NCBI GenBank assembly: GCA_040752695.1
Contig: JBFMGO010000018.1
Span: 804-64,803, forward strand
Source: a bacterium
GTDB lineage: Bacteria > SZUA-182 > DTGQ01
Length of the DNA: 64,000 bases
Direction of reading: 5' to 3'
A model generated the notes under the pieces. It was not told the DNA's origin, did not search any database, and saw nothing but the letters and a program-made list of their open reading frames with translations. Below, in pieces: positions 19,241-63,285 of the stretch. Numbering within the stretch: the first letter of the stretch is position 1; each line of letters begins with the position of its first letter. The position numbers and the translations under genes were made by a program.

Positions 19241-19399
19241 CTTAGCTCTCTCCCTCATACAACACCGTCATCTCTTCAACTACACCGCAATCTCTTAACC
19301 ATCCCCTCCCCCGCTCATTTTTGAGAGAGGGCAAAAGAGCGGGGAAGCATTCCGCATCTTCCCGCTCTCTTTTGTCACGATGATATATAAGATGAGATG

Positions 19400-21505: not shown

Positions 21506-21626
21506 AAACCTTTCCTTCCCGTTCAGTTCGTTTTAAAAGTCAGTTCCTTTCAAAGGTCAATTCTTCCCTGGCCTATGTGTTCCCAGGTCAGGACGATTAA
21601 ACATCTTCAAATCTCCGCTGGCAAAA

Positions 21627-23261: not shown

Positions 23262-23473
23262 ATGATTTCCTTCCTTGCAATCCCCCTGGCGGATTTATCG
23301 GGCCGCATGAGACCTTGAGCAGGCCATGAGCACAATGGCTGCTCGACATCTGCACCCTGCGGCTTTGTCCATACCACCGTCGAGGATTGGATTATCACCA
23401 TTCAACAAGCGGCTCGCCAGGCTGCCAACCAGGCGGCTTACCGGCTGGCTTGCCAGGTGGTTCGCCAATTGGC

Positions 23474-29149: not shown

Positions 29150-29269
29150 AGACAGATCTCCTTGACTATTCGTTTTGAGGGAAAATTGTGCCAGGCCATG
29201 GCCACGTCTTTGCCAGACCATTTTTGTTTTCCCTCAAGATCCTTTTCTCTCCTCGTGTATATCTCACCT

Positions 29270-30540: not shown

Positions 30541-30933
30541 ATGAAACACTCTTTGTCCCAGGCTCTTCCCCCTGCATCCCGGACGGAGCAGGAAAATTAT
30601 CACCTTCGTCTTCGCTTTGAATATGGTCCTCTGGACGATGGGACCCTCTGGATACGGATTGGGGTGCGGGGACTTTTCCATGCAGACTGGATGACTCTGC
30701 GGCTCCTTCTGGAATTGAATGGTGGAAGATCAATAACCGCGCTGGCTGAAAAGTATAAGATTGAGCAGCAGGAATTGCACGCTCTCCTTGTGAGTCTTGA
30801 GAAAGGGGGCTCAATTGTTTCTGCAGGGCAGGGGAAAATCACCATGGGGCGTCAGTGGGATGATATTCACCTATTCTGGGAAGGGTCATCCTTCCTTTTT
30901 TTCATTGATCAAGGAGATGGATATGCAGCTTGA
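30541..30933 (+). CDS. PqqD-family protein (RiPP recognition element-like peptide chaperone)
   Basis: The winged-helix PqqD pattern (LWIRIGVRGLFHADWMTLRLLLELNGGRSITALAEKYKIEQQELHALLVSLEKGGSIV) is present. Start chosen at MKHSLSQ, which has a GGAGAAAAGGAG RBS. The 3' end overlaps the next gene's start. Confidence 0.55.
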   Translation: MKHSLSQALPPASRTEQENYHLRLRFEYGPLDDGTLWIRIGVRGLFHADWMTLRLLLELNGGRSITALAEKYKIEQQELHALLVSLEKGGSIVSAGQGKITMGRQWDDIHLFWEGSSFLFFIDQGDGYAA

Positions 30934-33079
30934 ATTTTTAAAGAATCTTCTTTATCTCATGGCTGTTGCTGTTCTTATTGCCTCGACCTGCAGGATACTG
31001 AAAGAATATGAGCGGGCGGTTATTTTTCGCCTGGGAAAATTGCGGGACACGAAAGGTCCGGGACTGGTCTTTCTGATCCCGCTGGTTGACCGGATGCACA
31101 GGATTGACCTTCGGCTTGTATCGATTGATGTTCCCCGGCAGGATATCATGACCAGGGATAATGTTCCGGTAACCGTGGATGCAGTCGTTTACTTCAATAT
31201 CACTGATCCGGCCAGGGCAATCACCCGTATACAAAACATTTACCAGTCAACATTTCTGATCGCTCAGGCTACTCTGCGCAATGTCCTTGGTCAGGCAGAG
31301 CTGGATGACCTCCTCAGCCAGCAGGCGAAAATCAATCAGCAGTTGCAGCAGATTATCGCCGTAAACACCGGCCACTGGGGAATCTCGATTCCCATAGTTG
31401 AAATCAAGGAAGTTACCCTGCCGGAAGAAATGAAGCGGGCTATGGCTAAACAGGCGGAAACCGAGCGGGAGAGGCGGGCTCTTTTGATCGATGCCCAGGG
31501 TGAATACCAGGCTGCAAAGACCCTGGCCAAAGCAGGCCAGATTCTGTCCGGCAACCCTCAAAGCCTGCAACTGCGCTACCTTCAAACCCTGCGGCATATT
31601 TCCACCCAGCAAGGCTCGACTATCCTTTTTCCGCTGCCTCTGGATCTGATCAGCCCCTTTGTCAACGGGATAAAAGGGCTTCGGCCCAGGAGTGAGGAGG
31701 GAACGGCTATGAGTATGGGTTTGGATGTGGGTTTGGATAAAGCTATAGGTATGGACACGAATGTGGGTACGAATATGAGGGAAGATGAAGCCGCTGCCAC
31801 TGCCATCAGCGGCCTGAGCGGCAACTTCTCCGATGGTCCCATCCGGCAGGATACGGCGGATATATCACCAAAGATGCCAAACGTGAATCCAAAGATGCCA
31901 AACGTGAGCGATCTGTCAGGTTCCTTTTCTCTGCATGAATCAGCTCCCCTGAGGCAGCAGTCCCCGCTGAAGCAGCCGCCCCCGCTTAAACAGCCTTCAC
32001 CCCAAAAGGTTCTCCTGACCCAATACCAGCAGAAGTGGCGTAGCGGCCGGCTTCGGCCCCAGTTTGTGCAATGGCTGAGTACGAATCGCTGCCAGTTTCG
32101 ATGCACGCATTGCGAAACGACGGCCGGGCAGGCCAGCCCGGGAGAATTGACCACCAGTGAGGTCAAAAAGATAATTGATGATCTGGCTGATCTGGGATGC
32201 GAATTCTTTTCCATTACCGGCGGTGAACCCCTGCTGCGGCCCGATATCTTTTTGCTTGCCCGGCATGCCCACGAGCGGGGGATGAAAGTAGGGCTCACCA
32301 CAAATGGTCAGGCCACGGAGGAAAATCTCCTGGCCTTCGAGCAGGCGCGTTTTGATTCCTTGATTATTACCCTGGATGGCTGTCAGGGTACTCAGGACCG
32401 CCTGCGCGGCTGCCCGGGATCTTACGAGCGGGGAATCCGGACTATCGAATTCTACCATGACCTTGGGGCTCCCTTCATCGGGGTCAGCACCACACTTCTG
32501 GAAGAAAACATCAGGGATCTTCCGCAACTGACCGACGAGGTTTTTCGGGCCGGCGCCCACCAGCTCCAGCTTCAGCCCCTCCTTTTTCAGCATGGTCGGC
32601 CTAGCCGCAATAGCCCGGAAACAGTAAAAAATGCCTTCCGGTTTATCCTGGAAGCCAGAGGACGCGGGGTTGCCGTAGAACCGTCAGAGTCTTTCGGTTA
32701 TCTGGGGCCTTTGGAACCCCTGATCCGGACTAATCCTTTTTTTTGCGGCTGCGGCTGGAATACCTTCTGCCTGACCCATGAAGGAGAAGTATCAGGCTGT
32801 GCGGTACCGGTTCTCTCAGGCCAGACTGAGGGAAATATCCGGGATGGTTCTCTCAAAAAGATCTGGGAGCAGGAGTTTGGCAATTTCCGCAGGAATCTGC
32901 CAGCCGGGCTTTCCAATACGTGCCGGCAATGCCCGCACCTTTCACTTTGCCGGGGCGGATGCTGGCTCTTTCGCGCTCAAGGATTGAACCCCTGCTTCCT
33001 TCCGGAGGCAGAACAAGTGGAGGTCTTTTATGCGCTATATCCTCAAACTGCTGAAGGAAAAACCCAGGTATTACCTTGA
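30923..33079 (+). CDS. Fusion protein: N-terminal membrane SPFH/band-7 (stomatin/prohibitin-like) domain, low-complexity linker, C-terminal radical SAM + SPASM domain enzyme
   Basis: N-terminus: TM helix plus SPFH motifs (YERAVIFRLGKL...GPGLVFLIP...DAVVYFNI...). Linker: PKMPNV and PLRQQSPLKQPPPLKQ repeats. C-terminus: CX3CX2C (CQFRCTHC), a GGEPLL glycine-rich SAM motif, and SPASM cysteines (CGCGWNTFC...C...CRQCPHLSLCRGGC). One uninterrupted ORF. Start at ATG 30923 with an AAGGAG RBS. Confidence 0.7.
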   Translation: MQLEFLKNLLYLMAVAVLIASTCRILKEYERAVIFRLGKLRDTKGPGLVFLIPLVDRMHRIDLRLVSIDVPRQDIMTRDNVPVTVDAVVYFNITDPARAITRIQNIYQSTFLIAQATLRNVLGQAELDDLLSQQAKINQQLQQIIAVNTGHWGISIPIVEIKEVTLPEEMKRAMAKQAETERERRALLIDAQGEYQAAKTLAKAGQILSGNPQSLQLRYLQTLRHISTQQGSTILFPLPLDLISPFVNGIKGLRPRSEEGTAMSMGLDVGLDKAIGMDTNVGTNMREDEAAATAISGLSGNFSDGPIRQDTADISPKMPNVNPKMPNVSDLSGSFSLHESAPLRQQSPLKQPPPLKQPSPQKVLLTQYQQKWRSGRLRPQFVQWLSTNRCQFRCTHCETTAGQASPGELTTSEVKKIIDDLADLGCEFFSITGGEPLLRPDIFLLARHAHERGMKVGLTTNGQATEENLLAFEQARFDSLIITLDGCQGTQDRLRGCPGSYERGIRTIEFYHDLGAPFIGVSTTLLEENIRDLPQLTDEVFRAGAHQLQLQPLLFQHGRPSRNSPETVKNAFRFILEARGRGVAVEPSESFGYLGPLEPLIRTNPFFCGCGWNTFCLTHEGEVSGCAVPVLSGQTEGNIRDGSLKKIWEQEFGNFRRNLPAGLSNTCRQCPHLSLCRGGCWLFRAQGLNPCFLPEAEQVEVFYALYPQTAEGKTQVLP

Positions 33080-34166
33080 TAAGATAAAATATTATCCCAG
33101 GAACGTCGTTTGGGAGCTGACCCTGCGCTGCAACATGAATTGCGCTCATTGCGGTTCTGCGGCAGGCCCTGAACGGAGCAGGGAACTGAACCAGGAAGAG
33201 GCCCTGGATCTTTGCCATCAACTGGGGCGACTGGGCTGCGAGATTCTGACCCTGCTGGGAGGTGAACCCTTCCTGCGGGAAGACTGGGACGATCTGGCCC
33301 AATGCCTTAATGAGTATGGCGTTAAAGTGAATGCCATCTCCAACGGCTACCTCATGGACCAGGCCCTGGTGGACCGGATCAGGAAGGCCGGCCTTATCAA
33401 TGTGGCCATAAGCCTGGACGGACTTCAGGAAACTCACGAGAAGATCCGGCGAAAGCCAGGATCATATCACAGGGTGCTGAACGCCCTCACCCTGCTCCGC
33501 CGGAACGAGGTTTCAACTGCCGTGGTCACCACTATTTGCAAAAATAACCTGGCCGAGTTGGATGAGCTCTGCCGGATCGTCACGGAAAGCGGGGCGGAGA
33601 TCTGGCAGGTGCAGCTTGGCGTCCCCCGCGGGAGGCTGTGCGAACACGCCGAGTTTATTATCCAGCCTGAGGACATGCACACTGTCGAGCAATTTATTAT
33701 CCGGGTTCGCCAAAAGGGCCTGATCCGCCTGGATGTGGCCGACAACATCGGCTACTTCGGCCAGCATGAGGAGGCCCTCCGGGCAAATATACCCGGACGG
33801 ATGCCCCTATGGACCGGCTGCTTTGCCGGTGTGCAGGCCCTTGGCATCGAGGCCAACGGGGACATCAAAGGCTGCCTCTCCATGCCCTCTTTACCGGAGT
33901 TCAAAGAGGGCAACATCCGGCAGGAATCCCTGACCGCTATCTGGAACAAGCCTGGAAATTTCGCCTACAACCGCAGCTTTCATACCAGCCTGCTGGAAGG
34001 AGACTGCGCAGACTGTGCATATGACTATGTCTGCCGGGGAGGATGCAAATCTACAGCCTACTGCTTTACCGGCTCGATCTTCAACAATCCCTACTGTCTC
34101 TATCGACTGGAAAAGAAGGCAAGGGAAATAAAGCAGCCATCACCGGTTAGTCTGCATCTTCTTTGA
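33030..34166 (+). CDS. Radical SAM / SPASM domain protein (second maturase-like enzyme)
   Basis: CX3CX2C (CNMNCAHC), GGEPFL, and a SPASM twin-cluster region (CFAGV...C...CADCAYDYVCRGGC). GGAGG RBS. Overlaps the upstream gene by 50 nt, suggesting translational coupling. Confidence 0.8.
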   Translation: MRYILKLLKEKPRYYLDKIKYYPRNVVWELTLRCNMNCAHCGSAAGPERSRELNQEEALDLCHQLGRLGCEILTLLGGEPFLREDWDDLAQCLNEYGVKVNAISNGYLMDQALVDRIRKAGLINVAISLDGLQETHEKIRRKPGSYHRVLNALTLLRRNEVSTAVVTTICKNNLAELDELCRIVTESGAEIWQVQLGVPRGRLCEHAEFIIQPEDMHTVEQFIIRVRQKGLIRLDVADNIGYFGQHEEALRANIPGRMPLWTGCFAGVQALGIEANGDIKGCLSMPSLPEFKEGNIRQESLTAIWNKPGNFAYNRSFHTSLLEGDCADCAYDYVCRGGCKSTAYCFTGSIFNNPYCLYRLEKKAREIKQPSPVSLHLL

Positions 34167-34631: not shown

Positions 34632-35126
34632 TATTCGCAATACAACCTAAAAAGGATGAGATCCGGAAGAAATGCTCATGTCCAGGAGGGGGATAAAACC
34701 GGACATGAGCACCGGATATATCTTTTTCAGCCCTCCCCCGTATCCTTCCTATCCCGGATCAACCACGATAGTCTTAAGCCGTCTGCACGAATACCTCTAT
34801 AGTTTTAAGCCGTCTATACGGATACCGCTTCCGGATGCACTGCCCCATTTTAAATATTCGTAGAAAGTCTTTCCGTAACCGTAATAGAATGGAATCAATT
34901 ACCGCCTGATTAAAAATAGAAATTTGACTTAACCATCATGAATCTATCCCCAAAGAGGAATCTTTCTGTTAAAAACCCTTCAATGGTCGCTAAGGGGGTC
35001 CCATCCCTCTTGAGAAAAACGGGAGAAGCGGCATTTTGACAAGGAGGAAGAGGAGGAGGTATTTTGGGACAGACTCATGGAAAGACGTAAACAGCAAGGA
35101 AAGATGTGAATAAGGAGAACGGTAAG

Positions 35127-36863
35127 ATGATCACCATGAAACATTCAAAAAAGCATTTCTCTCTCACCCTGATCTTTACTATTGGCTTAGCAATAGTTCT
35201 TTGTACCACCTGCCTGCTTTGGCCCGCCCCTGTTACCGCTTCAGTAGAGTTTCTCTCTTTGTCAGATCTTCTTCCTTACTCATACCCTGCACTGACTTTT
35301 ACCGATATTTTCCGTCAATCCCTGTCAACGCTGTCACCCTCTCTGCCACTTTTGCCCTCTCTGCCGCTTTTGCCTTCACTCTCCAACTGGCAAAATCCGG
35401 CACCTTTCCTGACCTTGCCAGCCGCTCTTCAACCGGCACCAGGAGAGTTCCCGAATATTCTGGCTGGTCCCGGCCCTTCTTTTCTCTCCCTTCCTTCTCT
35501 TCTCCCCACCCCTTCCTTTCTCTCCGCTCCGCCTGCACCTTTAGCCCGTGTCGCTGCCGGGATTGTTCCTCCTCCACTGAACCCTGTTGTCGCCTCGCTC
35601 ACACCCCCGGTTCCTGTGGGGATCGACACACTCCAACTCCGAAATGGGCCGCTTGTTGCTTTGCAATCCCTGGGATCATTTATCCCTGGTGTGCCGACCT
35701 ACGTAAACGGCCAGGTCATGGTCACTTTTCTGCCCGGCACTCCCCCGGCTGAAATGGCCAGAGTCTATACCGCCAACCAGTGCCGTGAGATATACGCAAG
35801 TCCCTATGCTGGCTTTAAGCTCCTGGCCATACCAGCCCTTGTGTCACCGCTCGATATGACCCGACAGCTTGCCATGGAGCCTTCGGTCCTCTACGTAAGC
35901 CCCAATTATTACCGCCACGCCCATCTTATTCCCAATGATCCGTATTACACCTACCAGTGGCACCTGCCCAGGCTGAACGCCAGCTATGCCTGGGATTTTA
36001 GTACCGGCACCGGAGCACTGGTCGGCATCCTGGACTCCGGCGTGGCCTATGAGACAACCGCCACCTATGCCCTGGCGCCCGATCTTGCCGGGACACTTTT
36101 CGCACCCGGCTATGACTTTATCAACCTCGATACCAATCCGGATGACGATTACGGGCATGGAACGCATATGGCAGGATGCATCGCCCAGACGACCAACAAC
36201 CTGCTGGGGTGCGCGGGTGTGGCCTTCAATGCCACCATCATGCCGGTCAAGGTAATGGACAGCACCGGCAACGCGCCAATCAGTGCTGAAGTCGACGGCA
36301 TTTACTTTGCGGCCAACAGCGGAGTGAATATTATCAGCATGAGCCTTGGAGGAGCCGGTACCGACGCTACCGAGGCGGCAGCCGTTACCTATGCCTATAC
36401 GAATGGAGTATCCATCATCTGCTCAGCAGGCAACGCAGGCTCCAGCATCCCGGAATACCCGGCTTCCTACCCCGAATGCATTTCCGTAAGCGCTATCCGC
36501 TATGACTACACGATACCTGCTTACTCCAATTACGGGCAATACATCGACGTTTGCTCTCCGGGCGGAGATCTCACCGTTGACCAGAACCTCGACGGCTTTG
36601 GCGACGGGGTCCTGCAGCAAACCTTTGCATCACCCAATTATACGACCTTCTACTACTATTTCATGGAGGGTACTTCTCCTGCCGCAGCATTAGTCTCCGG
36701 AGCCGCTGCTCTCATCGTGAGTAAGAGCACGCTTCCCCTTACACCGCTTCAGGTGACCAATATTCTGGAGGGCAGCGCTACCGACCTGGGTACTGTCGGT
36801 TGGGATCAGTACTATGGCTACGGCCTGGTGAATCCCTACCTGGCCGTGCTCCAGACACCGTAG
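35127..36863 (+). CDS. Subtilisin-like serine protease (S8 family) with Pro/Leu-rich low-complexity N-terminal region
   Basis: Catalytic triad motifs: VGILDSG (Asp), HGTHMAG (His), GTSPAAALVSGAAAL (Ser). Signal peptide. AAGGAGAA RBS with 7-nt spacing. Confidence 0.85.
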   Translation: MITMKHSKKHFSLTLIFTIGLAIVLCTTCLLWPAPVTASVEFLSLSDLLPYSYPALTFTDIFRQSLSTLSPSLPLLPSLPLLPSLSNWQNPAPFLTLPAALQPAPGEFPNILAGPGPSFLSLPSLLPTPSFLSAPPAPLARVAAGIVPPPLNPVVASLTPPVPVGIDTLQLRNGPLVALQSLGSFIPGVPTYVNGQVMVTFLPGTPPAEMARVYTANQCREIYASPYAGFKLLAIPALVSPLDMTRQLAMEPSVLYVSPNYYRHAHLIPNDPYYTYQWHLPRLNASYAWDFSTGTGALVGILDSGVAYETTATYALAPDLAGTLFAPGYDFINLDTNPDDDYGHGTHMAGCIAQTTNNLLGCAGVAFNATIMPVKVMDSTGNAPISAEVDGIYFAANSGVNIISMSLGGAGTDATEAAAVTYAYTNGVSIICSAGNAGSSIPEYPASYPECISVSAIRYDYTIPAYSNYGQYIDVCSPGGDLTVDQNLDGFGDGVLQQTFASPNYTTFYYYFMEGTSPAAALVSGAAALIVSKSTLPLTPLQVTNILEGSATDLGTVGWDQYYGYGLVNPYLAVLQTP

Positions 36864-48726: not shown

Positions 48727-50295
48727 TCAGGGCAGCGGAACAAGATCGATTTCAAAGAGTTTTGGCCAGAACTTTCCGGTCACAAACAGCCGGTCATTTT
48801 TAGCATCATAGGCAATGCCGTTGAGTACATCAACCGGGTAGACAAGGTCTGCCGGAGTCAATAGCCCGCTCAGATCTATATATCCAACTACCTGGCCTGT
48901 CAGGGGCGAAATTATGGCTATGCGGTCTGTCAGCCAGACGTTAGCGTAAATCACCCCTTTGATGTATTCCAACTCGTTGAGATTCGTTACCGGGCCATCC
49001 TGGTCATAGACATCAATCGAGCTGACTTCTGCAAAGGTTACTGGGTCCAGAAAATGCAATGTTGCCGTGCCGTCACTCATGATCAGGTTCGTTCCATCGT
49101 GAGTGATACCCCAGCCCTCGGTTGGATAGGTGAAACTCTGAAGCTGGACAAAGGTAAACTTATCGTAAACGAATCCGATATTATGCAGCCAGGTCAACTG
49201 GATAATCTTGTTTGCGTAGATGGTTATTCCCTCACCCCAGTATGGAGCAGGCAGATCAAGGCTTTGCAGAATCGTTCCGGTCGATAGATCAACCCGGCGT
49301 ATTTGTGAGTGTCCGGGAATCCCGGTCCCTTCGTAGAGAAAGCCATTGCTAAAAACTAATCCCTGGGTGAAGGCAATTCGGTCATGCGGATATGCATTGA
49401 CCACTGTATAAGTGTAATAGACCGGTACAACAGGGGCTACCACCTCAGCCCTGGGCCAGCTTATCAAACCGCCTTGAAGAGCCGCATATGGGAGGACTGA
49501 ATATGGTTGGGATATATACGGCTGAGTTGCATACGGCTGAGCTGTATACGGATGAGCTATATACGGCTGAGCTGCATATGACTGAAAACCTTGAGACCCG
49601 ATGGAAATGGAACCCAATGATCCCAGACCCAAAAGGGTATTGGCTACGTAATTGCCCGAATTGGACACGGAAAAGGCATTCACCGGAGTCTGGGGAATGG
49701 TCGCAGCGATTAGATTGGAATTTAAAAGCCCATTGGCGAGCGAAAGGGTTAAGGCTCCTTGAGGGAAGAGATTTAATCTATACGTTCCATACATCCCGGC
49801 AGCCGAGGGGACCCCGGCAACAGATACATTTATCACCTGCTGGGGTGAAGCTTGACTGCTGTAACGTCCGCTGAGAGAGCCATTTTGTCCAGAGATCAAA
49901 AATACACTATCGGGAATCAAAGATAGGTCGGCAATCAAGGACGGATCAAAATTCAAAGGCAAACCAGGGCTTAAGGATAAACTTGAAACCTGGGACAGAC
50001 CGGGATTCAAGAGCAGACCAGGAAGCAAGGACAGACCGGGATTCAACGTCGGACCAGGATTCAAAGTCAGACCAGAAATTGAGGACAGACCGGGATTCAA
50101 CATCAGGCTAGAGATTGAGGACAGATCAGGATTCAAAGATAAAGATGAAGCATACCGACTGTCAGCAGGAGCAGTCAAGGAATAGGGAAAAAGTTTATTC
50201 CCGAAGGAGCTGAACTGGGCATTACCGGTTGGGACAAACAAGAGAACTGCGAAACCTGTTATCAAGGATAAACAGATTGCAATAATTCTGGGCAT
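48727..50295 (-). CDS. Secreted fusion protein: low-complexity N-region (LNPGLS and QPY repeats) plus C-terminal glutaminyl-peptide cyclotransferase (bacterial/plant beta-propeller QC)
   Basis: C-terminal ~250 aa carry QC-family motifs (GLVFSNGFLYEGTGIPGHSQIRRVDLSTG..., WLHNIGFVYDKFTF, GWGITHDG, LNELEYIKGVIYANVW). Signal peptide. Predicted signal peptidase cleavage GNA|QF would leave N-terminal Gln. Confidence 0.65.
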   Translation of the reverse strand: MPRIIAICLSLITGFAVLLFVPTGNAQFSSFGNKLFPYSLTAPADSRYASSLSLNPDLSSISSLMLNPGLSSISGLTLNPGPTLNPGLSLLPGLLLNPGLSQVSSLSLSPGLPLNFDPSLIADLSLIPDSVFLISGQNGSLSGRYSSQASPQQVINVSVAGVPSAAGMYGTYRLNLFPQGALTLSLANGLLNSNLIAATIPQTPVNAFSVSNSGNYVANTLLGLGSLGSISIGSQGFQSYAAQPYIAHPYTAQPYATQPYISQPYSVLPYAALQGGLISWPRAEVVAPVVPVYYTYTVVNAYPHDRIAFTQGLVFSNGFLYEGTGIPGHSQIRRVDLSTGTILQSLDLPAPYWGEGITIYANKIIQLTWLHNIGFVYDKFTFVQLQSFTYPTEGWGITHDGTNLIMSDGTATLHFLDPVTFAEVSSIDVYDQDGPVTNLNELEYIKGVIYANVWLTDRIAIISPLTGQVVGYIDLSGLLTPADLVYPVDVLNGIAYDAKNDRLFVTGKFWPKLFEIDLVPLP

Positions 50296-54441: not shown

Positions 54442-54717
54442 GATGGATGTCAGGGGACGGGTGAACCGCAGGGGACAGATGACTGGCAGGGGGCGGATGA
54501 CTTAAGGTGTATCCTCTGCTAAAATCCCCCATTCCCTTTAGAAAAGAGGGGAAGTCAGTGATGGAAAGCTGATACAGGGAATTGTTATTTCACCACGAAA
54601 AGCACGAAGCGTTTGCTGATCCAGCTTCTTCAGCGTCGTGATCTTCGTGATCTTCGTGGTGAAAATAGGTGAACGTTTTTGGGTTCCAGCTTTTCAGAGC
54701 CTAAAACTTGATTATTA

Positions 54718-54897
54718 TCACCCTGCTTCGCCAAAATCAAAGATTCCTCCATTGCCATTGGCATCCCCAAACAATGCGTACCAGGCGCGGGAGGTATTAT
54801 AGCCGCCTAAAATCTTCCTCATCTCTTCAACTTTCAGCTTTTCATCATCACTGAGATCATTGATTTTGATTCTGGTAACTTCAATTTTATCCTGCAT
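54718..54897 (-). CDS. Double-glycine (GG) leader peptide precursor, 59 aa (MQDKIEVTRIKINDLSDDEKLKVEEMRKILGG | YNTSRAWYALFGDANGNGGIFDFGEAG); too short for the ORF track
   Basis: Hand-translated from the minus strand. Strong RBS (AAAGGGAGGATAGAAATC-ATG). The leader has hydrophobic residues at -4 (I), -7 (M), -12 (L) and ends in GG, matching the LSxxELxxIxGG consensus. It lies ~2.5 kb upstream of the C39-peptidase ABC transporter and is followed by an imperfect hairpin (54589-54665). Confidence 0.55.
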   Translation of the reverse strand: MQDKIEVTRIKINDLSDDEKLKVEEMRKILGGYNTSRAWYALFGDANGNGGIFDFGEAG

Positions 54898-54956
54898 GAT
54901 TTCTATCCTCCCTTTGTTAGGTTAAAGCATCTTGAAATGAGTTAAGTACACCGAAC

Positions 54957-55075
54957 ATTAAATACGCAGCCAGATAGTATGTAGTAATCCTTCGTCATTC
55001 TGAGCGAAAGCTCAGAATCCAGAAGCCCTGGAAAAGCCTGGATTCTGAGCCTCCGCTCAGAATGACGGGTGATGC
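54957..55075. repeat. Dispersed repeat copy B: the same ~45-nt arm as 38915, followed by a long imperfect palindrome (gtcattctgagcgaaagctcagaatccag...ctggattctgagcctccgctcagaatgac)
   Basis: The arm acattaaatacgcagccagatagtatgtagtaatccttcgtcattc is near-identical to 38918-38960. Confidence 0.7.
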
Positions 55076-55480
55076 TTTTCCTTAAGTGAAAAGTCCAAAA
55101 CTCCTTCCGGACATGCCTCTTCCGGTATTTTTGCTCTTTTTTACCCTCCTTTCCTGGTGATATTAGCTGGGAATTGTTTCCTCATCGAGGATCTCATTAT
55201 AATAGGAATTCAATCATCCTCTATTTATTTTTTCGGCTGTTTCAGCAGATCATTCAGGGGAATTCGCCTTTCAAGAAGTTTTTTCTCGTTTTTTCCCGGC
55301 AGGTAATGAGAGCCCAAGGGATGAATACGAAGACAGATTAAAAGCAGGACGAAAAAAAATTTGTATTATCAGTTTCAGGCAAAATCACAATTAAGTTTTA
55401 TCTCTAATAGCCTGCTAAATCGTCACAGCATCTGTTTGCTTCATGTGCAATTTTTGTCTCATGTGCAATTCCGGAATCTT

Positions 55481-57136
55481 ATGAAAAAATTGAGTCATAA
55501 AATTCAACCGATAATTATCCTCTTGCCTCCTCTCAGCCGCAGTTCTCTGCTCCTCAGTTCCCAGTTCCTCAGTTCCCTGCTCATCGGTTCCCTGCTCCTC
55601 GGCTCTTCGTTCCTCAGTTCTCTGTTTCTCAGTCCTCTGCTCAGCCGTGATGCAGCCGCTGCCGGATACATGGATAACACGAACACCCTTTCACTGTCTG
55701 ACAGCCTGAGCATTGCTCTGAAAGAAAATACAGATATCCAGTATTATCTGCTTGATAAGGATAAGGCCGAAAAAGAGGTTGATTATCAGAAGGCTGTCTA
55801 TCTTCCTTATCTGAAATTAAACACTAAAATGGGCACCTATGCCTATGATGTTTTAACACTTGATAATTACCGCAATCACCGCATCATGGACTTCGACCTC
55901 GCCCTCAGTAAAAGGCATTCTTTTGCCGGGGCATCCTCCATTCATTTTTCGACTGCCAGTGACAGGAGCACGTACTATACTCCGCGTATTCATCAGGATG
56001 AGTATACATCAGCTATCTTTTTCAAATATGATCAGCCCTTATTAAAGGGCTGGGGCCGGAAAATGGCAGATCTGGAAATAGAAAAAGCCGGGATACACAG
56101 GGAACTGGCTATTCAGAAATTAAAAGATATGAAAAATACTATTCTCTTCAATGTATTCAGGGACTATTTTTTACTTTACCTGACTGGAGAAGAACTCCGT
56201 CTGAAACGCGAAATAAGAAATAATACAGAAGAAATATACAATGTCGTAAATGAAAAAGTGAAGATGCAAAAGCTCCCGATAACAACCTTGAATAAGATGA
56301 AAGCAACATTGCTTATTCAGGATAAGGAAATGGCTGATCTGGAAAACGAAAAGAAAAAAAAAGAACATGCCCTTGTGCTCTCCCTTTATAACAAATCACA
56401 CTATCATGGCTCACAACAGCATGACCTGCAATATCGTGACTCACAACAACATCACTCACAATCAGGTTCGGATACCAGGGTTATCCTTGCAACGAGGCCC
56501 GATTCCGTGATTAATTCCTTTCCTGCGCCTTCCTGGCCGGATTTACAGATTAGATTGGAAGAGGTGGATTTTGCCTTAATAGACTATGGCCACCGATTAC
56601 AATTAGCAGAAAAAGAAAGAGAAAAGGCTCTGAACGACTTGAAGCCGGATCTTACGATATCCCTGGAAGCAGGAATAAACGGTTATGATTCGCATGAATG
56701 GTCAAGCTCGATCGGAGGTATTTCTTCGAGCAATTACCGCGCCCTCCTCACCGGAATGCTTGGTCTTCCCCTGAAGAATACTGCGGCTAAAGCTAACCTC
56801 GCGGCAGCAGAAAATCAGAACAGGCAGCTTTTGATACAGATAGGCAATCGCCGGGAGGAAATCAAAAATCTGATTAACGAACTCCGGGATGATATGGAAA
56901 CAGTGAGGAACAATATGGAGTTAAGTGAAAAGATCGCGGCTATCTCAAAAGAAAACCTTGAAAACGAAATAGAGCTCCTGGTAGGAGAGAAAAGCACTGT
57001 TCTGGATACTCTCGATTATCAGACAGCCTTTATCAGTGCGAAGCTGAATATGCTCAACACAAGGATAGATTATGTAATGCTTATTGGCACCTATTATCTG
57101 TTGAGAAGAGAAATGGAGTATCTTATAAGTCACTAA
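55481..57136 (+). CDS. TolC-family outer membrane efflux/type I secretion protein
   Basis: OEP-family start (LSLSDSLSIALKENTDIQYYLL...). Two coiled-coil-rich repeats. Long Ser/Leu low-complexity signal region encoded by a tandem DNA repeat (55540-55650). Confidence 0.6.
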   Translation: MKKLSHKIQPIIILLPPLSRSSLLLSSQFLSSLLIGSLLLGSSFLSSLFLSPLLSRDAAAAGYMDNTNTLSLSDSLSIALKENTDIQYYLLDKDKAEKEVDYQKAVYLPYLKLNTKMGTYAYDVLTLDNYRNHRIMDFDLALSKRHSFAGASSIHFSTASDRSTYYTPRIHQDEYTSAIFFKYDQPLLKGWGRKMADLEIEKAGIHRELAIQKLKDMKNTILFNVFRDYFLLYLTGEELRLKREIRNNTEEIYNVVNEKVKMQKLPITTLNKMKATLLIQDKEMADLENEKKKKEHALVLSLYNKSHYHGSQQHDLQYRDSQQHHSQSGSDTRVILATRPDSVINSFPAPSWPDLQIRLEEVDFALIDYGHRLQLAEKEREKALNDLKPDLTISLEAGINGYDSHEWSSSIGGISSSNYRALLTGMLGLPLKNTAAKANLAAAENQNRQLLIQIGNRREEIKNLINELRDDMETVRNNMELSEKIAAISKENLENEIELLVGEKSTVLDTLDYQTAFISAKLNMLNTRIDYVMLIGTYYLLRREMEYLISH

Positions 57137-57316
57137 TACAACTGAGTCACTAACACAACAGGGCGTAAGTAACTGGTTTCGTTTTCAGTTAAGGGAGGGG
57201 AGTACCTGATGCTACACCGAGGCTTTCACATGGGAGCTTGCACTGATGCTTCATCCTACTCAGGAATTGTTCCTCCCTAATTTACTAAAATCAATGTCAT
57301 TACCATAATCAATGTC

Positions 57317-57340
57317 ATTCCCGCGAAAGCGGGAATCCAG
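57317..57340. repeat. Third copy of the palindromic core gtcattcccgcgaaagcgggaat
   Basis: Direct reading. Immediately upstream of the ABC transporter start. Confidence 0.7.
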
Positions 57341-57356
57341 GCTTTTCAAGATACCT

Positions 57357-60300
57357 ATGGATATCAACGACCTTTTACAATTTATCCGGAAGATTACGCT
57401 TTTTTCCATTTTCAGTGATGAAGAACTGGCCCAACTGACCAGAGTGGCCGAGCTCAAGTCGATCAGTGCAGGTGGGCTTATCTTCGACCAGGGCACTTCA
57501 GGGAAAGAATTTTACCTTGTTTACAGCGGGAAGGTTCGCATAGTACAAAAGAACGAAAAAAAGCAGGAAATCAACCTTGGGGTCAGAACCAGGGGAGACC
57601 ATTTCGGAGAAACCGCCCTTATTACTGATAAGGCACGAAATGCAGCAGCCCGGGCAGCGGAAGACAGCGTTCTCGTATCCATCGACAGGCAACTGTTTTA
57701 TGACTACTTTTATTCTAAACCCGAGTTGAGGGAATATTTTGACAAGTTTATTCGGTACACCTCCATTCATCAGTTCTTGAAGTCGTGCACAGAGCTCTCA
57801 TCCGTGCCTCCGCAGCAGTTACAGGCTCTGGTGCAGAATTTTCATTCAGAGTTCTTTAAAGAAGGCGATGTGGTCTTCAGGCAGGGTGCTGAACCGGATA
57901 AATTTTATCTGGTGGAAAGCGGAAAACTGAAGGTGGTCCGGTGGGGAGGGAAGAGCCGGCAGATCATCAATTTTTTGCGTGAAGGCGATTTTTTTGGTGA
58001 AAAGGCCCTGGTGGAGGATAGCCGACGGTATGCAGATGTAGTTTGCCTCACCAATTGCACCTTATTCTCTCTTTCCAAAGAGACATTTTATGAGCTGGTG
58101 CCTCATTCACCAAAAATAAAAAAAGTGTTTGAAGACCGCATCCGGTCTTACCTGACAGATAAGCCGCCCATACCCTACCAGGAAATCATTAAGCAGGAGA
58201 TGGCCGCACTCCAGGATATTCACGTTCAAAAAGGTGACTCTCAAGGTAACTCTCAAGGTGCCTCCAAAGGCACATCCAAGGATGCCTCCAAGCGTGCCTC
58301 CAGGGGTTACTCAGGGGAAGAGGCATCTCCTCTCGATGAAAAACCGGGCTATGGAAAAAGATTCTCGACCCTGTATTACCGGAATATTCATTTTCCTTTT
58401 ATCATGCAGCACGATCAGATGACCTGCGGTACAACCTGCCTCATGATGATCGCCAGGTATTATGGGAAAAATTTTTCTTCCAGCAGATTGCGTGAGCTGG
58501 CCCATGTTGACCTCAGCGGCTCGTCGCTGGCCAATCTTGCCTCGGCAGCGGAGCAACTGGGCTTTTCCACCAGGGGGATGAAGCTTCGTTACGATACCCT
58601 GATAGCCGTCCACCTGCCCTGTATTGTACACTGGCAGGGTTATCATTATGTGGTTGTTTATCGGGCAAGTGAAAAGAATGTGCGGGTTGCAGATCCTGCT
58701 CTCGGCCTTCGTATATACACCAGAGAAAAATTCCTGGATAACTGGAATGGGATAACCCTCTCTCTTGAGCCCACCCCTGAATTCGAGAAGCAGACAGAGG
58801 ATAAAACATCGTTCAGGAATTTTATCCAGTTTGTCCGCCCTTATAAATTGATTCTCCTGGAGATTCTGGTCGCCTCAATTCTCATGAACCTCTTCGGTCT
58901 GGCTACCCCTATCTTCACCCAGAACGTGATCGACAAGGTCTTGTTTCACCATAATGCTTCCATGCTGAATATCATGCTTACAGGGATGGTTCTTGTTCTG
59001 ATCTTTCAGTTCCTGGTGAGTGTCCTGCGGCAATACCTGATCGTGCATACCAGCATGAAAATAGACCTCAGGATGCTGGTGGCCTTTTACAAGCATATGC
59101 TTTCCCTACCCCTTGGCTATTACAAGGTGCGCAAGGTGGGCGATTTCATCTCACGGTTCGGCGAGAATAAGAAAATACGCAGCTTTCTGACCAATACGGC
59201 CCTGACTATGGTTCTTGATACGATCCTGATCAGCGTCTACCTGTCTTTAATGTTCTATTACAATGTGCAGATGACCGGTCTTGCCCTTCTGTTCATGCCC
59301 ATTTTTATTACCATTACGCTGATCTTTACGCCAATGTTCAAGAAATTGAATGTCGATTCCTTTGCGGCTCAGGCCGAGTCCGAATCCCACCTGATCGAAT
59401 CAGTCAATGGAATCGATACGGTCAAGGCCATGAACATCGAATATCCCACGCGATGGAAATGGGAGGACAAGTATATTAAGAGCCTGAATATCGATTTCAA
59501 GCTCTTCAACACAGCCATTTATTTTCATTCCCTGGGAGACTTCGTTGGAGCATTAAGCTCGACCATCATTCTCTGGTACGGCGCCCAAAAGGTCATGCAG
59601 GGGACCATAAGCGTTGGTGAATTGATGGCCTTTATGGCCCTCATGGGCAGTGTCATAACTCCTGTCAACCGGATTATAACCGCCTGGGATACGATTCAGC
59701 AGACCATGGTCTCCGTCGATTTGCTCAACGACGTATTCACTGCCAAAGCGGAGTTCTCCGAATCAATGGAAGAGGCAACCGGCCTGGTAATCAGTGAGCC
59801 GCGCGGCGAAATCGCTTTTGAAAATGTTTATTTCAGATACGGCGGAGAAAATGACGCCTATATTTTATCCAACATAACCTTACGGATCGCCCCCGGCCAG
59901 ACTGCGGCCATCGTTGGACGAAGCGGTTCAGGGAAATCTACCCTGGTGAAGCTCATTGCCCGGTTCTACGATGTGACGGAGGGGAAAATTTCCATCGACG
60001 GATGTGACCTGAAAAATATCGATCTGACGAGCCTGCGGAATATGGTGGGATTTATCCTTCAGGACAACTTTATCTTCAACGCAAGCATACGCGAAAACAT
60101 ATCCTTTGGCGATCCGGAAGAAACCATGGGCAAGGTTATCGAAGCCGCAAGACTGGCCAATGCCCACGATTTCATTTCAGGACTCGGCCAGGGGTATGAA
60201 ACCAGAGTTGGTGACAGCGGGCTTCAACTGTCAGGCGGCCAGAAGCAGAGGATCGCTATTGCCAGAGTGCTGTATCGCAATCCAAAGATCATTATCTTCG

Positions 60301-60536
60301 ACGAAGCCACCAGTTCGCTCGATACCGAATCGGAGCAGGCCATCCAGAAGAACATGAGGGTCATTCTGCAAGGGAAAACCGCCCTCATCATTGCCCACAG
60401 GCTGAGCACGGTACGAAATGCTGACATCATTTTCGTTATCGATAACGGAGAAATTATCGAACAGGGGACGCATGAAGAGTTGATGAAAAGGCGCGGCCTG
60501 TACCACTACCTGAATCATCAACAGCTTAACTTGTAG
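57357..60536 (+). CDS. Peptidase-C39-domain ABC transporter with two N-terminal cyclic-nucleotide-binding (cNMP) domains (bacteriocin/peptide processing exporter)
   Basis: Two cNMP motifs (GG.IFDQG....FYLV.SG.V....RGDHFGE.AL; GDVVFRQGA...FYLVESGKL....REGDFFGEKAL). C39 active site (QMTCGTTCL Cys, HYVVVY His). Six-TM ABC membrane domain. Walker A (GRSGSGKST), LSGGQKQR, Walker B (IIIFDEATS). Confidence 0.85.
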   Translation: MDINDLLQFIRKITLFSIFSDEELAQLTRVAELKSISAGGLIFDQGTSGKEFYLVYSGKVRIVQKNEKKQEINLGVRTRGDHFGETALITDKARNAAARAAEDSVLVSIDRQLFYDYFYSKPELREYFDKFIRYTSIHQFLKSCTELSSVPPQQLQALVQNFHSEFFKEGDVVFRQGAEPDKFYLVESGKLKVVRWGGKSRQIINFLREGDFFGEKALVEDSRRYADVVCLTNCTLFSLSKETFYELVPHSPKIKKVFEDRIRSYLTDKPPIPYQEIIKQEMAALQDIHVQKGDSQGNSQGASKGTSKDASKRASRGYSGEEASPLDEKPGYGKRFSTLYYRNIHFPFIMQHDQMTCGTTCLMMIARYYGKNFSSSRLRELAHVDLSGSSLANLASAAEQLGFSTRGMKLRYDTLIAVHLPCIVHWQGYHYVVVYRASEKNVRVADPALGLRIYTREKFLDNWNGITLSLEPTPEFEKQTEDKTSFRNFIQFVRPYKLILLEILVASILMNLFGLATPIFTQNVIDKVLFHHNASMLNIMLTGMVLVLIFQFLVSVLRQYLIVHTSMKIDLRMLVAFYKHMLSLPLGYYKVRKVGDFISRFGENKKIRSFLTNTALTMVLDTILISVYLSLMFYYNVQMTGLALLFMPIFITITLIFTPMFKKLNVDSFAAQAESESHLIESVNGIDTVKAMNIEYPTRWKWEDKYIKSLNIDFKLFNTAIYFHSLGDFVGALSSTIILWYGAQKVMQGTISVGELMAFMALMGSVITPVNRIITAWDTIQQTMVSVDLLNDVFTAKAEFSESMEEATGLVISEPRGEIAFENVYFRYGGENDAYILSNITLRIAPGQTAAIVGRSGSGKSTLVKLIARFYDVTEGKISIDGCDLKNIDLTSLRNMVGFILQDNFIFNASIRENISFGDPEETMGKVIEAARLANAHDFISGLGQGYETRVGDSGLQLSGGQKQRIAIARVLYRNPKIIIFDEATSSLDTESEQAIQKNMRVILQGKTALIIAHRLSTVRNADIIFVIDNGEIIEQGTHEELMKRRGLYHYLNHQQLNL

Positions 60537-60619
60537 GATCTGACATCCATGGAATCTGAAGAAACAGGGACAGGGGATCTGAAGATAGCAGGGACAAGGG
60601 GTCTCAAGAAAGCAGGAAC

Positions 60620-62260
60620 ATGGAATCTGAAGAAAACAGGGGTAGTGAATTTGGGCAATCCGGTTTGGCAAAAGCGGCACCGGATGAGCGGCAGATTGCG
60701 CAATCCGGTCTAACGAAAGCGGCGCCGGATGACCGGCAGATTGATCAATCAAATCTCCTGAAGGTAACACCCAATGACTCACCTTCTGAGAATTACCTGG
60801 TGACGGAGCATCTTCAAAAGATGCCCAGTCTGTTTGCCAGGGGATTGGTCTATGTCATAGTATTGATGCTGGCTGTCGCCCTGGTCTATTCCCTGGTAAG
60901 CAAAATCGATATTGTCGTGGAAGCCTTATCCCTTGCCCGGCCCGTCTCACATAAGATAAGAGTCGTTTCCGACAGGACCGGATACATAGTTGATATAGGG
61001 ATCTCAGAAGGTCAGAACATTCAAAAGGGCGCACCTTTGTTTTTCATCCTGTCAAAAGAGGCGATCTCGTACCGGTCCAGAATCGATGAGCTGCATCATA
61101 CAATCCCTCTTAAGGAGGAATACTATCGAAACAGCATATCATCTGCCCAGGACGAATTGGATCGCCTGAGAAGAGAGCTGCCGAACACCTTGACGGTAAA
61201 AAGACTGAAGCTTGAGCAGAACCGGCTTTCCCTTCATGCACTTGAAGTTGATCTTGCCTTCTGGCAGGAGGAAGTCACGAATTTGAAGAAGGAGTTTGAA
61301 AACACGCGAAAACTGTTTGAAAAACAGCTTACCTCGATAGCGGAATATAACAATATCAAGAGCCGGTTTGAGCGGGCAGGTACAGAAGTGAATAAGATTA
61401 TTTCCCAAAAGGATATTACGGAAAAAGAATATCGGATTATGCAACAGGAGTTCGAAAATACGCAATCTGGCTATGAAAGCAAAATAGCTTCTCTTGAGAA
61501 GGAGATCGAGAATCTTGAGCTTGAAAAAAAGTCCGCCATTCAGTCTCTTCATAGTGAGCTGGAAATGAAGGAGAAGATGCTCTCACTGCACGGAGATGCC
61601 TCGTATGGAGATACGCCACGTGGAAATCCATCACGTAGAAATGCATCACGTGGAAATGCATCCCATGGTGAGAAGCAGCGTAGAGATATATCGCATGAAA
61701 ATGCCGGTTTCAGTGCCAATACTCCTTTTGATACTAATATTTCTATTGTTACCAATACTCTTTTTGGTATCGATATTCCTTTTGGTATCGATACTCCTGT
61801 ACAACCGTCCGATGAAAAAGATAAAGGGACCATCATAAGAGCAGACAGGGCAGGCATTATTTCGGAGCTTTATTTCAGAAACAAGGGCGAGTACGTCCGG
61901 GAATCCGATCTTTTGTGCACCATTCTCCCACTGGACAGCCCTCTTCATATGGATATTATGGTGGCTAATAAGGACATCGGCTTTATCGAGGTTGATATGG
62001 AAATAAAATATAAATTTGATGCTTTCCCCTATGCTGATTACGGGACCCTATCCGGGAAGGTGCTCTCCATTTCTCCCTCAGCCGTTGAAGATAAAAACCA
62101 GGGATTTATCTACCATATCAGAGGGAGCCTCCAAAGGCCGTACTATGAAATTAAGGGAAAAAAATATTTTCTGAAACCCGGCATGACGGCTACAGCCGAG
62201 CTGGTAACCGAGAAAAAAAGCATCTTTTCAATTTTGTTTCGCAAGGTGAAAATGCGATAG
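60620..62260 (+). CDS. HlyD-family membrane fusion protein (type I secretion adaptor) with an internal low-complexity insertion
   Basis: N-terminal TM. Long coiled coil. C-terminal beta-barrel segment (LSGKVLSISP...). Insertion encoded by a 15-nt tandem repeat (catcacgtggaaatg) at about 61590-61680. Confidence 0.75.
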   Translation: MESEENRGSEFGQSGLAKAAPDERQIAQSGLTKAAPDDRQIDQSNLLKVTPNDSPSENYLVTEHLQKMPSLFARGLVYVIVLMLAVALVYSLVSKIDIVVEALSLARPVSHKIRVVSDRTGYIVDIGISEGQNIQKGAPLFFILSKEAISYRSRIDELHHTIPLKEEYYRNSISSAQDELDRLRRELPNTLTVKRLKLEQNRLSLHALEVDLAFWQEEVTNLKKEFENTRKLFEKQLTSIAEYNNIKSRFERAGTEVNKIISQKDITEKEYRIMQQEFENTQSGYESKIASLEKEIENLELEKKSAIQSLHSELEMKEKMLSLHGDASYGDTPRGNPSRRNASRGNASHGEKQRRDISHENAGFSANTPFDTNISIVTNTLFGIDIPFGIDTPVQPSDEKDKGTIIRADRAGIISELYFRNKGEYVRESDLLCTILPLDSPLHMDIMVANKDIGFIEVDMEIKYKFDAFPYADYGTLSGKVLSISPSAVEDKNQGFIYHIRGSLQRPYYEIKGKKYFLKPGMTATAELVTEKKSIFSILFRKVKMR

Positions 62261-62404
62261 GTAAAGATAAGGTTAGGTGAGATTGAGGTAAGTGAAGTTG
62301 AGGTAGGCGAGGCTGAGGTAGATAAGGTTGATATAGATAAAAATGAAGTAGATAAGGAAGTACCCAGGAATGAATATACTTCAAGACCAGGGAATGCCTT
62401 CGAT

Positions 62405-62438
62405 TCCCCCTTTTATAAAGGGGAGTTGGGGGATTTTT
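62405..62438. repeat. Short palindromic repeat ccccttttataaaggggagttgggggattttt (second copy at 41573-41608), here nested inside longer inverted repeats (ccagggaatgccttc ... gaaggcattccttggg)
   Basis: Direct reading of both copies. Confidence 0.55.
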
Positions 62439-62538
62439 GATATAAAATGGGGAAGGCATTCCTTGGGAAATCCCTAAGAATAAGGGAGATAAAAACGAGG
62501 GAAGAAATAAGGGAAGAATTGAGAAAAACATCTAACAT

Positions 62539-63285
62539 GTGGAGGTATTGGTCATGGAAACGGGTTATGCGCAGGGAAAAATTTCGTTTGAAGAAATAGT
62601 AAAATTTCTTGCCTTAAGCGGTATGGCTTATAGCATTTATCCCGAAGTCATAAAATATAAAGAGACGCGAAAAAAAGCAGGGGAACTTGGATTAACGGTT
62701 TCAGATGAACAGCTTCAGACATTTGCTGATAATTACAGGAAAGCTCGGGATCTCTATTCGGCCAGGGACACACATGCTTTTCTGGAAAACTCCGGCCTTA
62801 CGGCAGGCGATCTTGAATCCTTTTGTGAATCGATGATATTAATAGACCTTCTCAAGGAACACCTGGCAGATGAAAGGAAGGTAGAAGAATGCTTCGTCAA
62901 TAACCGCGCTGATTTCGATTTGGCCAGAATTTCAATCATAGCCGTAAAAGAAGAGAATCTGGCCAATGAGATTATCATGCAGGTGACAGAGGATGGCGAA
63001 GATTTTCATGCCCTGGCCAGAAAACATTCCATGGACCAGAAAAGCAAATATTCCGGCGGCCATATTGGCCTGATATCTCGTCGTTTGCTTGGACCAGAAA
63101 TAGCTGCCAAGGTATTTAATGCGTCAAGTGGAGATGTGCTTGGCCCGTTTAAGATCAATGGCCTGTTTCAATTGATCCTGGTCGAGGAAGTGATAAGAGC
63201 CGATCTCTCCAACCTGAAGGTTAAGGAAAAAGTTAAAGAGAGAATATTCAACGAATGGATTGGGCAATTATACCCAAGGAATTAA
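62539..63285 (+). CDS. Parvulin/PpiC-type PPIase-domain protein (NifM/PrsA-like), downstream of HlyD
   Basis: C-terminal rotamase-like segment (ISIIAVKEEN...FHALARKHSMDQKSKYSGGHIGLISRRLLGPEIAAKVF...GDVLGPFKINGLFQLILVEEV). Confidence 0.45.
   Translation: MEVLVMETGYAQGKISFEEIVKFLALSGMAYSIYPEVIKYKETRKKAGELGLTVSDEQLQTFADNYRKARDLYSARDTHAFLENSGLTAGDLESFCESMILIDLLKEHLADERKVEECFVNNRADFDLARISIIAVKEENLANEIIMQVTEDGEDFHALARKHSMDQKSKYSGGHIGLISRRLLGPEIAAKVFNASSGDVLGPFKINGLFQLILVEEVIRADLSNLKVKEKVKERIFNEWIGQLYPRN

Follow-up and report, generated by a model that had tools for sequence, protein, structure and literature searches.

A double-glycine precursor peptide and a C39 ABC transporter with tandem cyclic nucleotide-binding domains in a conserved, predicted export module of an uncultured bacterium

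Background

The 64,000-nucleotide (nt) stretch of DNA analysed here (the window) is part of contig JBFMGO010000018.1 of the metagenome-assembled genome (MAG) GCA_040752695.1, and it carries near its 3' end a five-gene module: a small minus-strand gene for a peptide precursor with a double-glycine (GG) leader and, divergent from it, genes for a TolC-family outer-membrane factor, an ATP-binding cassette (ABC) transporter with two cyclic nucleotide-binding (CNB) domains ahead of a C39 peptidase domain (cNMP-C39-ABC), a HlyD-family periplasmic adaptor, and a parvulin-like protein with a PpiC/rotamase domain (the rotamase protein). An earlier note on this DNA, made from its letters alone, had described these genes as a complete export set opposite a peptide gene, and domain calls confirm the divergent set (OEP/TolC-like, cNMP_binding twice with C39 and ABC, HlyD, PpiC rotamase). 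The 59-amino acid (aa) reading frame is a genuine conserved gene and not a chance occurrence, and we consider it probable that the whole locus is a self-contained peptide processing and export module built around a long-type peptidase-containing ABC transporter (PCAT).

The precursor peptide and its orthologs

Translation of the minus-strand open reading frame (ORF) 54718..54897, stop codon included, yields a leader, MQDKIEVTRIKINDLSDDEKLKVEEMRKILGG, and a core, YNTSRAWYALFGDANGNGGIFDFGEAG, exactly as the earlier note had written them, and the ATG is preceded a few bases upstream by AAGGGAGGA, the ribosome-binding site (RBS) that the note had also pointed out. The same note had called the peptide unannotated; GenBank lists it as 'MAG: hypothetical protein AB1847_06215', and it was missing only from the 60-aa ORF track given to the earlier reader. 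By motif scan and phmmer it is the sole GG-leader ORF of the 64-kb window, and a hidden Markov model (HMM) of the leader family described below, run on the window ORFs, matched the precursor with an E value of 6e-9 and the runner-up ORF with 1.5. Counted back from the predicted cleavage site, the leader hydrophobics are I-4, M-7, and L-12, which fit the contact positions of the LahT-leader co-crystal, where residues -4, -7, and -12 occupy hydrophobic pockets (PMC6363468). The core begins with Tyr, carries a net negative charge, has many Gly, Asn, and aromatic residues, and contains no Cys; there is no proline in the precursor, in leader and core alike. A Pfam scan of the precursor gave no match, and TIGR04149 matched residues 8-39 (the leader region) at 23.3 bits, which misses its cutoff of 25.

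The closest relative of the window rotamase protein, P0128 (77% identity), is encoded on a 164-kb contig of an independent MAG, GCA_040755755.1 (locus L006); the ortholog there was found through synteny and not through searches for core homologs. The module in L006 has the same arrangement as in the window, i.e., a 59-aa minus-strand gene divergent from OEP (the TolC-like ortholog, E 4e-237), cNMP-C39-ABC, HlyD, and rotamase genes, and its peptide, MQEKVEVTRIKINDLSEDERLKVEEMKKILGGYNTSRAWYALFGDSKGNGGIFDFGEAG, matches the window precursor in length and position. Between the two precursor coding sequences, which are 90% identical in nucleotides, there are 11 synonymous changes and 7 nonsynonymous ones, all conservative; the ratio of nonsynonymous to synonymous substitution rates (dN/dS) is 0.13 over the whole sequence, with 0.19 for the leader and 0.07 for the core, and the precursor is under purifying selection. 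Identity collapses directly outside the coding sequence, except for the RBS and the arms of a downstream hairpin. The module has unrelated flanks in the two MAGs: in L006 it stands between Cas3 and a response regulator, and in the window a nitroreductase and a flavodoxin gene lie on the peptide side and 715 nt without a long ORF separate the rotamase gene from the window end. The nitroreductase and the flavodoxin were considered as modifying enzymes of the neighbouring precursor and ruled out, being outside the module in L006.

Apart from the window peptide itself, the only relative of the core to emerge from a word-index search and from exhaustive HMMER scanning of 1.84 billion representatives was P0002, a 94-aa protein with a Nif11-type leader (PF07862) ending in ...LESVAGG and followed by YNTSQAWYALFGDANGNGGIFDF, which brings the known core family to three sequences (window, L006, and P0002). 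The similarity between the window peptide and P0002 starts exactly at the first residue after GG and the leaders are unrelated; the 27-aa core is therefore a conserved functional unit with GG as its junction, and this natural leader swap, which resembles the leader swapping known among GG-type precursors, supports a predicted cleavage after GG. A gene overlapping that of P0002 downstream encodes at least 237 aa of an uncharacterised protein. A pattern scan of the Joint Genome Institute (JGI) metagenomes for the core gave one match, L005, which was rejected as a chance match: GYNTSRAW occurs there in a non-genic frame that lies opposite a radical SAM gene.

Table 1. Features of the export locus (positions in the window)
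Feature	Position	Strand	Details
Long hairpin just 3' of the precursor stop	54588..54664	-	dG -48.6 kcal/mol
Precursor peptide gene	54718..54897, stop included	-	59 aa: 32-aa double-glycine leader and 27-aa core
Conserved non-coding block	55290..55387	.	98 nt, 76.5% identity to L006; about 95-190 nt 5' of the TolC-like start
TolC-family outer-membrane factor	55481..57136	+	Start revised from 55361; Pfam OEP 1.8e-17, two stretches
23-aa ORF	57209..57280	+	Strong SD-like run; probably not a gene
Long-type peptidase-containing ABC transporter	57357..60536	+	1059 aa; Pfam and NCBIfam; start from L006 alignment
HlyD-family periplasmic adaptor	60620..62260	+	Pfam HlyD_3 4.6e-15; TIGR01843 5e-42
PrsA/SurA-like parvulin-domain protein (P0126)	62554..63285	+	GenBank start; 243 aa; Pfam Rotamase 2.5e-13

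Leader family and distribution of the cassette

Metagenomes frequently contain homologs of the N-terminal half of the transporter and of the rotamase protein. When genomes were scanned with the rotamase alignment, 39 loci were obtained, from Syntrophaceae, Desulfobacteraceae, Desulfarculaceae, Latescibacterota, Aminicenantes, Kiritimatiellota, Victivallales, Pyrinomonadaceae, Chthonomonadales, the cultured Desulfamplus magnetovallimortis, and several Paenibacillus and Cohnella species. The cNMP-C39-ABC gene adjoins the rotamase gene in about 27 of them, that is, wherever the contig is long enough; loci of diderm lineages also carry HlyD and often TolC genes, neither of which is found in the Firmicutes loci. 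The gene order cNMP-C39-ABC, HlyD, rotamase is kept in L001, L002, L006, and many of the genome loci.

In L001 and L002 the cassette is followed by a GG peptide with a similar leader (...ITIKDLPKDKKISKDEMKRVFGG^FYYGPP... in L001, ...LSIKDLAGKEVDKQETKKVKGG^TRIICYS... in L002, where three radical SAM genes come next). An iterated leader profile with the consensus KKRTKVKDLPKKEKELSKDEMKKVKGG (approximately KKRxxVKDLPxxxKxLSxxExKKVKGG) retrieved 54 peptides at 20 cassette loci of several phyla and had zero matches in six control loci that lack the cassette; the leader family is tied to the cassette. The earlier note had made the presence of GG-leader peptides at orthologous loci a check on its reading, and L006 and these 20 loci supply them. 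The cores behind these leaders are hypervariable and range from 10 to 48 aa. In the Pyrinomonadaceae loci L025, L026, L027, and L038 there are 8-10 precursor genes each, with near-identical leaders and unrelated short cores. A common 17-aa core (DLHVGTKPIIKKVTIRP or similar) was observed just 5' of the rotamase gene in L033, L036, L037, and L040 (Paenibacillus and a Bacillota MAG).

The transporter

The start of the transporter gene was set at the ATG encoding MDINDLLQF because nucleotide similarity to L006 begins exactly there and because codons 1-15 of the longer, 1074-aa ORF (MSFPRKRESRLFKIP) derive from a palindromic repeat, GTCATTCCCGCGAAAGCGGGAATCCAGGCTTTTC, which is not present in L006. 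The protein consists of tandem CNB domains (residues ~7-263), the C39 domain (~346-474, with Q351, C357, H430, and D446), a transmembrane domain, and a nucleotide-binding domain with the motifs GRSGSGKS at 854, LSGGQ at 958, and IIIFDE at 978 (Pfam: cNMP_binding twice, 1.7e-44; Peptidase_C39, 2e-37; ABC_membrane, 2.4e-48; ABC_tran, 6.4e-34). It scores below the curated cutoffs of two transporter families (TIGR01193, 516 vs 524; TIGR01846, 632 vs 726).

The C39 domain aligns to those of PCAT1, ComA, and LahT, and Q351, C357, H430, and D446 correspond to the oxyanion Gln and the catalytic triad of PCAT1, the position of C357 being confirmed through the Cys-to-Ala variant of PCAT1 in the Protein Data Bank (PDB). 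These four residues are kept in 26-27 of the 28 transporter family members. The active site is intact, as the earlier note had read it, and cleavage and export of a GG substrate are predicted.

The N-terminal ~260 residues form a tandem CNB pair that is nearest to the regulatory-subunit pairs of PKG/PKA (E 6e-30), in agreement with the two domains that the note had placed ahead of the peptidase. Both phosphate-binding cassettes (PBCs; FGETALITDKARNA in PBC-A and FGEKALVEDSRRYA in PBC-B) keep the Gly-Glu pair and the Arg, and both Arg residues align to the PBC Arg of PKG that contacts the cyclic phosphate; in PBC-B, G214, E215, R224, and A226 are kept in 27-28 of the 28 members, across phyla. 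A class III adenylate/guanylate cyclase gene stands directly 5' of the transporter gene in L001 (7411..9768, CHASE2) and L012 (3196..5706, CHASE2), between the ABC and HlyD genes in L015 (5869..7617), and about 4 kb away in L021 (14424..17630), and these neighbours, spread over several unrelated lineages, lend some support to a cyclic-nucleotide signal.

The statement that processing and export are gated by cyclic AMP or cyclic GMP (cAMP/cGMP) goes further than the evidence supports: the PBC residues are conserved, yet the cNMP domain of HetC from Nostoc PCC 7120, a transporter with cNMP, C39, and ABC domains whose peptidase and ATPase residues and cNMP domain are all essential (the cNMP domain in vivo), was stabilised in vitro by GTP and ppGpp (Kd 59 uM) and not by cAMP or 2-oxoglutarate (PMC10986499). 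Gating by cAMP or cGMP is hypothetical here, and by analogy with HetC, the sole experimental precedent, cAMP is disfavoured. The earlier note was right that this regulatory arrangement is mechanistically little studied; it overstated its novelty, as a cyanobacterial precedent was published in 2011 (PMC3140520).

The parvulin-like protein

The rotamase protein is related to TIGR04500 (PpiC_rel_mature, 'putative peptide maturation system protein'; 79.9 bits over residues 48-241, cutoff 180) and is not a member by the curated threshold. Its AlphaFold2 model (pLDDT 93, from a 39-sequence alignment) has a helical chaperone-type N-terminal domain followed by the parvulin domain, and the best PDB matches of the model in Foldseek are full-length PrsA, SurA, PEB4, and related chaperone-foldases (E ~1e-10). 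The N-terminus comprises two short strands and a helix and has neither signal peptide nor lipobox, so that the protein should be cytoplasmic. A separate ~137-aa protein homologous only to the N-terminal chaperone-type half is encoded after the rotamase gene in L001 (14947..15360), with equivalents in L009, L010, L012, L013, L018, L020, L021, and L022; it is missing from the window and from L006.

In a BLASTP comparison with E. coli Par10, the parvulin His pair (ALHIL, GYHII) is replaced by I128/S127 and Q206, and the Cys position by D161; S127 and D161 are invariant or nearly so in the rotamase family alignments. By these residues the window protein does not appear to be an active parvulin-type peptidyl-prolyl isomerase (PPIase). 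Of the earlier description as a PPIase-domain protein, the PpiC rotamase domain stands, and an isomerase acting on the precursor is unlikely; since the precursor has no proline and both catalytic His residues are replaced, a role as holdase or adaptor is proposed over prolyl isomerisation.

TolC-like gene, spacers, and non-coding elements

The TolC-like gene most likely starts at MKKLSHK, for which L006 has a matching MK(K/R) start, and the gap between it and the precursor gene is therefore 583 nt and not the ~460 nt given before. TolC-like genes also adjoin the cassette in L009, L013, L017, L018, L020, and L022. Within the divergent spacer only the conserved non-coding block can be aligned with L006; its translated frames contain stop codons, it has no Rfam match, and it is a candidate promoter, operator, or 5' untranslated region of the export operon. 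The hairpin behind the precursor gene (z -4.9; 0 of 200 shuffles equally stable) keeps its stem arms in L006 with a different loop, and it is likely a terminator or a stabiliser of the mRNA, although a U-tract is absent.

Copies of the palindromic repeat (GTCATTC-stem-loop-stem-GAATCCAGGCTTTTC) were observed at 54994..55066 and 57312..57345, and L006 lacks them at these places; two inverted copies give a long hairpin in the precursor-TolC spacer and a third gives the false 15-codon extension of the transporter. A search of 54300-57500 against Rfam returned only sub-threshold microRNA-like matches on this repeat, which are spurious, and a promoter/terminator scan gave weak consensus matches only, with nothing convincing for the precursor gene.

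The second tiny ORF that the earlier note had suggested as a leader or attenuator peptide does exist. No alignment to L006 was possible for the spacer between the TolC and ABC genes in which it sits, and this spacer is gone in L009, L013, and L022, where the genes abut or overlap; the ORF was rejected for its lack of conservation in L006 and is most likely not a gene.

Wider context in the window

Two radical S-adenosylmethionine (rSAM)/SPASM genes were observed within 30797..34166, the first of which seems to share a single ORF with a Band_7/SPFH domain; after them come 940 nt devoid of long ORFs and then a subtilase (S8) gene at 35106..36863. This region may be a separate cluster resembling those for peptides that are made by the ribosome and modified after translation (RiPPs), and no precursor was identified in it. 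A minus-strand gene at 48727..50295 encodes 522 aa, of which the C-terminal part is a glutamine cyclotransferase domain (PF05096, 9.5e-93) and the N-terminal half a long low-complexity stretch rich in Ser, Leu, and Pro; it is not linked to the precursor, the core of which starts with Tyr and not Gln.

The stretch 10496..24415 holds genes for a molybdopterin oxidoreductase with an FdhE-like gene, the large and small subunits of a NiFe hydrogenase, and a HycI maturation protease, and among them lies a second, two-domain PpiC-type rotamase (17178..18746). A multihaem cytochrome of 1166 aa is encoded at 25721..29221. To judge by gene content, the host is indicated to be an anaerobe that metabolises hydrogen or formate.

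Comparison with known systems

The architecture of cNMP-C39-ABC, HlyD, and rotamase genes is already known. A survey of 145 cyanobacterial clusters by Wang, Fewer and Sivonen (2011) distinguished a 'long type' of C39 ABC transporter, in which a CAP_ED domain is added at the N-terminus; such transporters go together with HlyD and a 'SurA' protein containing a rotamase domain in groups I, II, and VI, of which group I occurs in nearly all cyanobacterial genomes surveyed, and a KIxDL...GG signature was reported in HetP-like precursors (PMC3140520). The window shares with these groups the three-gene core, the domain order with CNB ahead of C39 (an N-terminal CNB extension of ~300 aa), and a nearby GG-type precursor, whose leader reads KINDL...GG. 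It differs from them in its host (an uncultured anaerobe MAG, with NiFe hydrogenase and multihaem cytochrome context), in a TolC-like gene within the operon, in a single divergent precursor, and in a rotamase protein below the TIGR04500 cutoff; it is thus a non-cyanobacterial case with an added TolC gene.

In HetC a single cNMP domain is annotated, no adaptor gene lies next to the transporter gene, and no substrate is known, whereas the window transporter has two CNB domains, a conserved phosphate-binding cassette, and an obvious predicted substrate encoded next to it. PteB of Synechococcus elongatus, whose domain organisation has been described as HetC-like, secretes the small GG-motif proteins EbfG1-4, on which biofilm formation depends (PMC4997328); the catalytic Cys (in HetC also the His) is needed for function in both transporters. 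With the CvaB-CvaA-TolC system and with PCAT1, ComA, and LahT, the window module has in common the C39 triad, predicted double-glycine cleavage, the leader contact positions -4, -7, and -12, and a predicted tripartite route of ABC transporter, adaptor, and outer-membrane factor in diderms, but those systems lack N-terminal CNB domains and a dedicated cytoplasmic PrsA/SurA-like partner. Unlike members of the TIGR04149 family (GG_sam_targ_CFB), the window precursor has a leader below the cutoff, no adjacent radical SAM maturase, and a core without Cys.

Proposed mechanism and alternative explanations

In the mechanism that we propose, the 59-aa prepeptide would be made from its own divergent transcription unit, its leader would form an amphipathic helix with I-4, M-7, and L-12 seated in the groove of the C39 domain, and Cys357/His430/Asp446 would cut after Gly31-Gly32. 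The Tyr-first core would then be pumped out by way of ABC dimer, HlyD adaptor, and TolC-like channel, in parallel to the export of class II microcins by CvaAB-TolC. The tandem CNB domains may make transport or cleavage depend on a phosphate-containing nucleotide signal, and the cytoplasmic PrsA/SurA-like protein may serve as a dedicated prepeptide holdase or adaptor and not as a prolyl isomerase.

Several points weigh against this account. Expression, cleavage, and secretion at the window locus are predictions from sequence context; no cyclase gene was found in the 64-kb window, and cAMP had no effect in HetC. The chaperone role of the PpiC-like protein is drawn from fold and context. A comparison of the window and L006 spacers found no conserved ORF in them, the module has no conserved immunity gene or sensor kinase, and the leader is similar to TIGR04149, whose name refers to rSAM-modified peptides, so that modification keeps some probability.

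If the ORF were a chance frame with a GG motif beside an exporter whose true substrates are encoded elsewhere, its length of only 59 aa, the missing Pfam match, and a core family of just three sequences would need no further explanation, and yet such a frame would hardly keep its length, position, and RBS in L006, accumulate the synonymous and conservative changes noted above while identity collapses in its flanks, match the leader HMM as it does, and share its core with P0002 behind a different leader; by these comparisons a chance ORF is effectively refuted and its likelihood negligible. A more substantial alternative is that the precursor is a RiPP, modified before export (e.g., by radical SAM/SPASM aromatic cross-links) by enzymes encoded elsewhere, with a GG leader that serves both maturase and exporter. 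The aromatic-rich core and a leader just under the threshold of TIGR04149 ('rSAM-modified RiPP') would suit this, as would the peptide of L002, whose leader belongs to the same family and which precedes three radical SAM genes, and P0002, whose core carries a Nif11 leader and is followed by the uncharacterised overlapping gene; in addition, the two window rSAM/SPASM genes have 'nif11-class peptide radical SAM maturase 3' and 'GDL motif peptide-associated maturase' as their best NCBIfam matches, at scores far under threshold. Those two genes, however, are 20 kb off with unrelated genes between and have no homologs near any other cassette locus, the module common to the window and L006 contains no modifying enzyme (in L006, none in the 10 kb to each side), Cys is absent from the core, and most of the cassette loci that have this leader family are without a neighbouring rSAM gene. 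We hold modification of this kind to be improbable.

An unmodified core could also act as a class II microcin-like bacteriocin, with immunity encoded elsewhere or provided by the lack of a receptor. Microcin V is exported by CvaB/CvaA/TolC, to which the window machinery is analogous, and the core resembles class II microcins in being rich in Gly, anionic, and hydrophobic-aromatic; the hypervariable cores of the leader family and the multi-copy arrays of L025-L027 and L038 would likewise fit antagonism. Class II microcin loci carry an immunity gene, however, and none was seen at the window locus, nor is there a conserved small membrane or immunity ORF beside the precursor in either MAG. The core is moreover conserved across distant contexts (its dN/dS is not that of a diversifying sequence), and the peptides that PteB exports in Synechococcus are no toxins and have their role in biofilm formation (PMC4997328). 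A microcin-like function is therefore a possibility that we take seriously while thinking it rather unlikely, and for the exported core we lean towards an unmodified secreted signal or matrix peptide in the first place and a microcin-like toxin in the second.

Conclusions

Put together, the observations allow a broader picture, which is offered tentatively and which we think less likely than not: in at least eight phyla, one leader family would send hypervariable peptides to a transporter that a second messenger switches post-translationally, at the step of cleavage and export, by binding to the CNB domains, with a cyclase in the operon of some lineages as its source; a catalytically degenerate, cytoplasmic SurA/PrsA-like protein would serve as holdase of the prepeptides, and the 27-aa Tyr-first core would represent a new signal or matrix peptide secreted by anaerobic bacteria of sediments.

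Such systems are widespread, their mechanism has been little studied, and nothing established is overturned by the present description. In the window locus a long-type PCAT, presumed to sense nucleotides, stands beside one unambiguous predicted substrate, a pairing that HetC does not offer. The 54 peptides at 20 loci, which include those of the cultured Desulfamplus magnetovallimortis, Paenibacillus, and Cohnella, give a handle on the ligand of the CNB domains and on its coupling to cleavage or transport, and the same comparative set gives a handle on what a cytoplasmic PrsA/SurA-like protein without the His pair may do for peptides that are perhaps free of proline.

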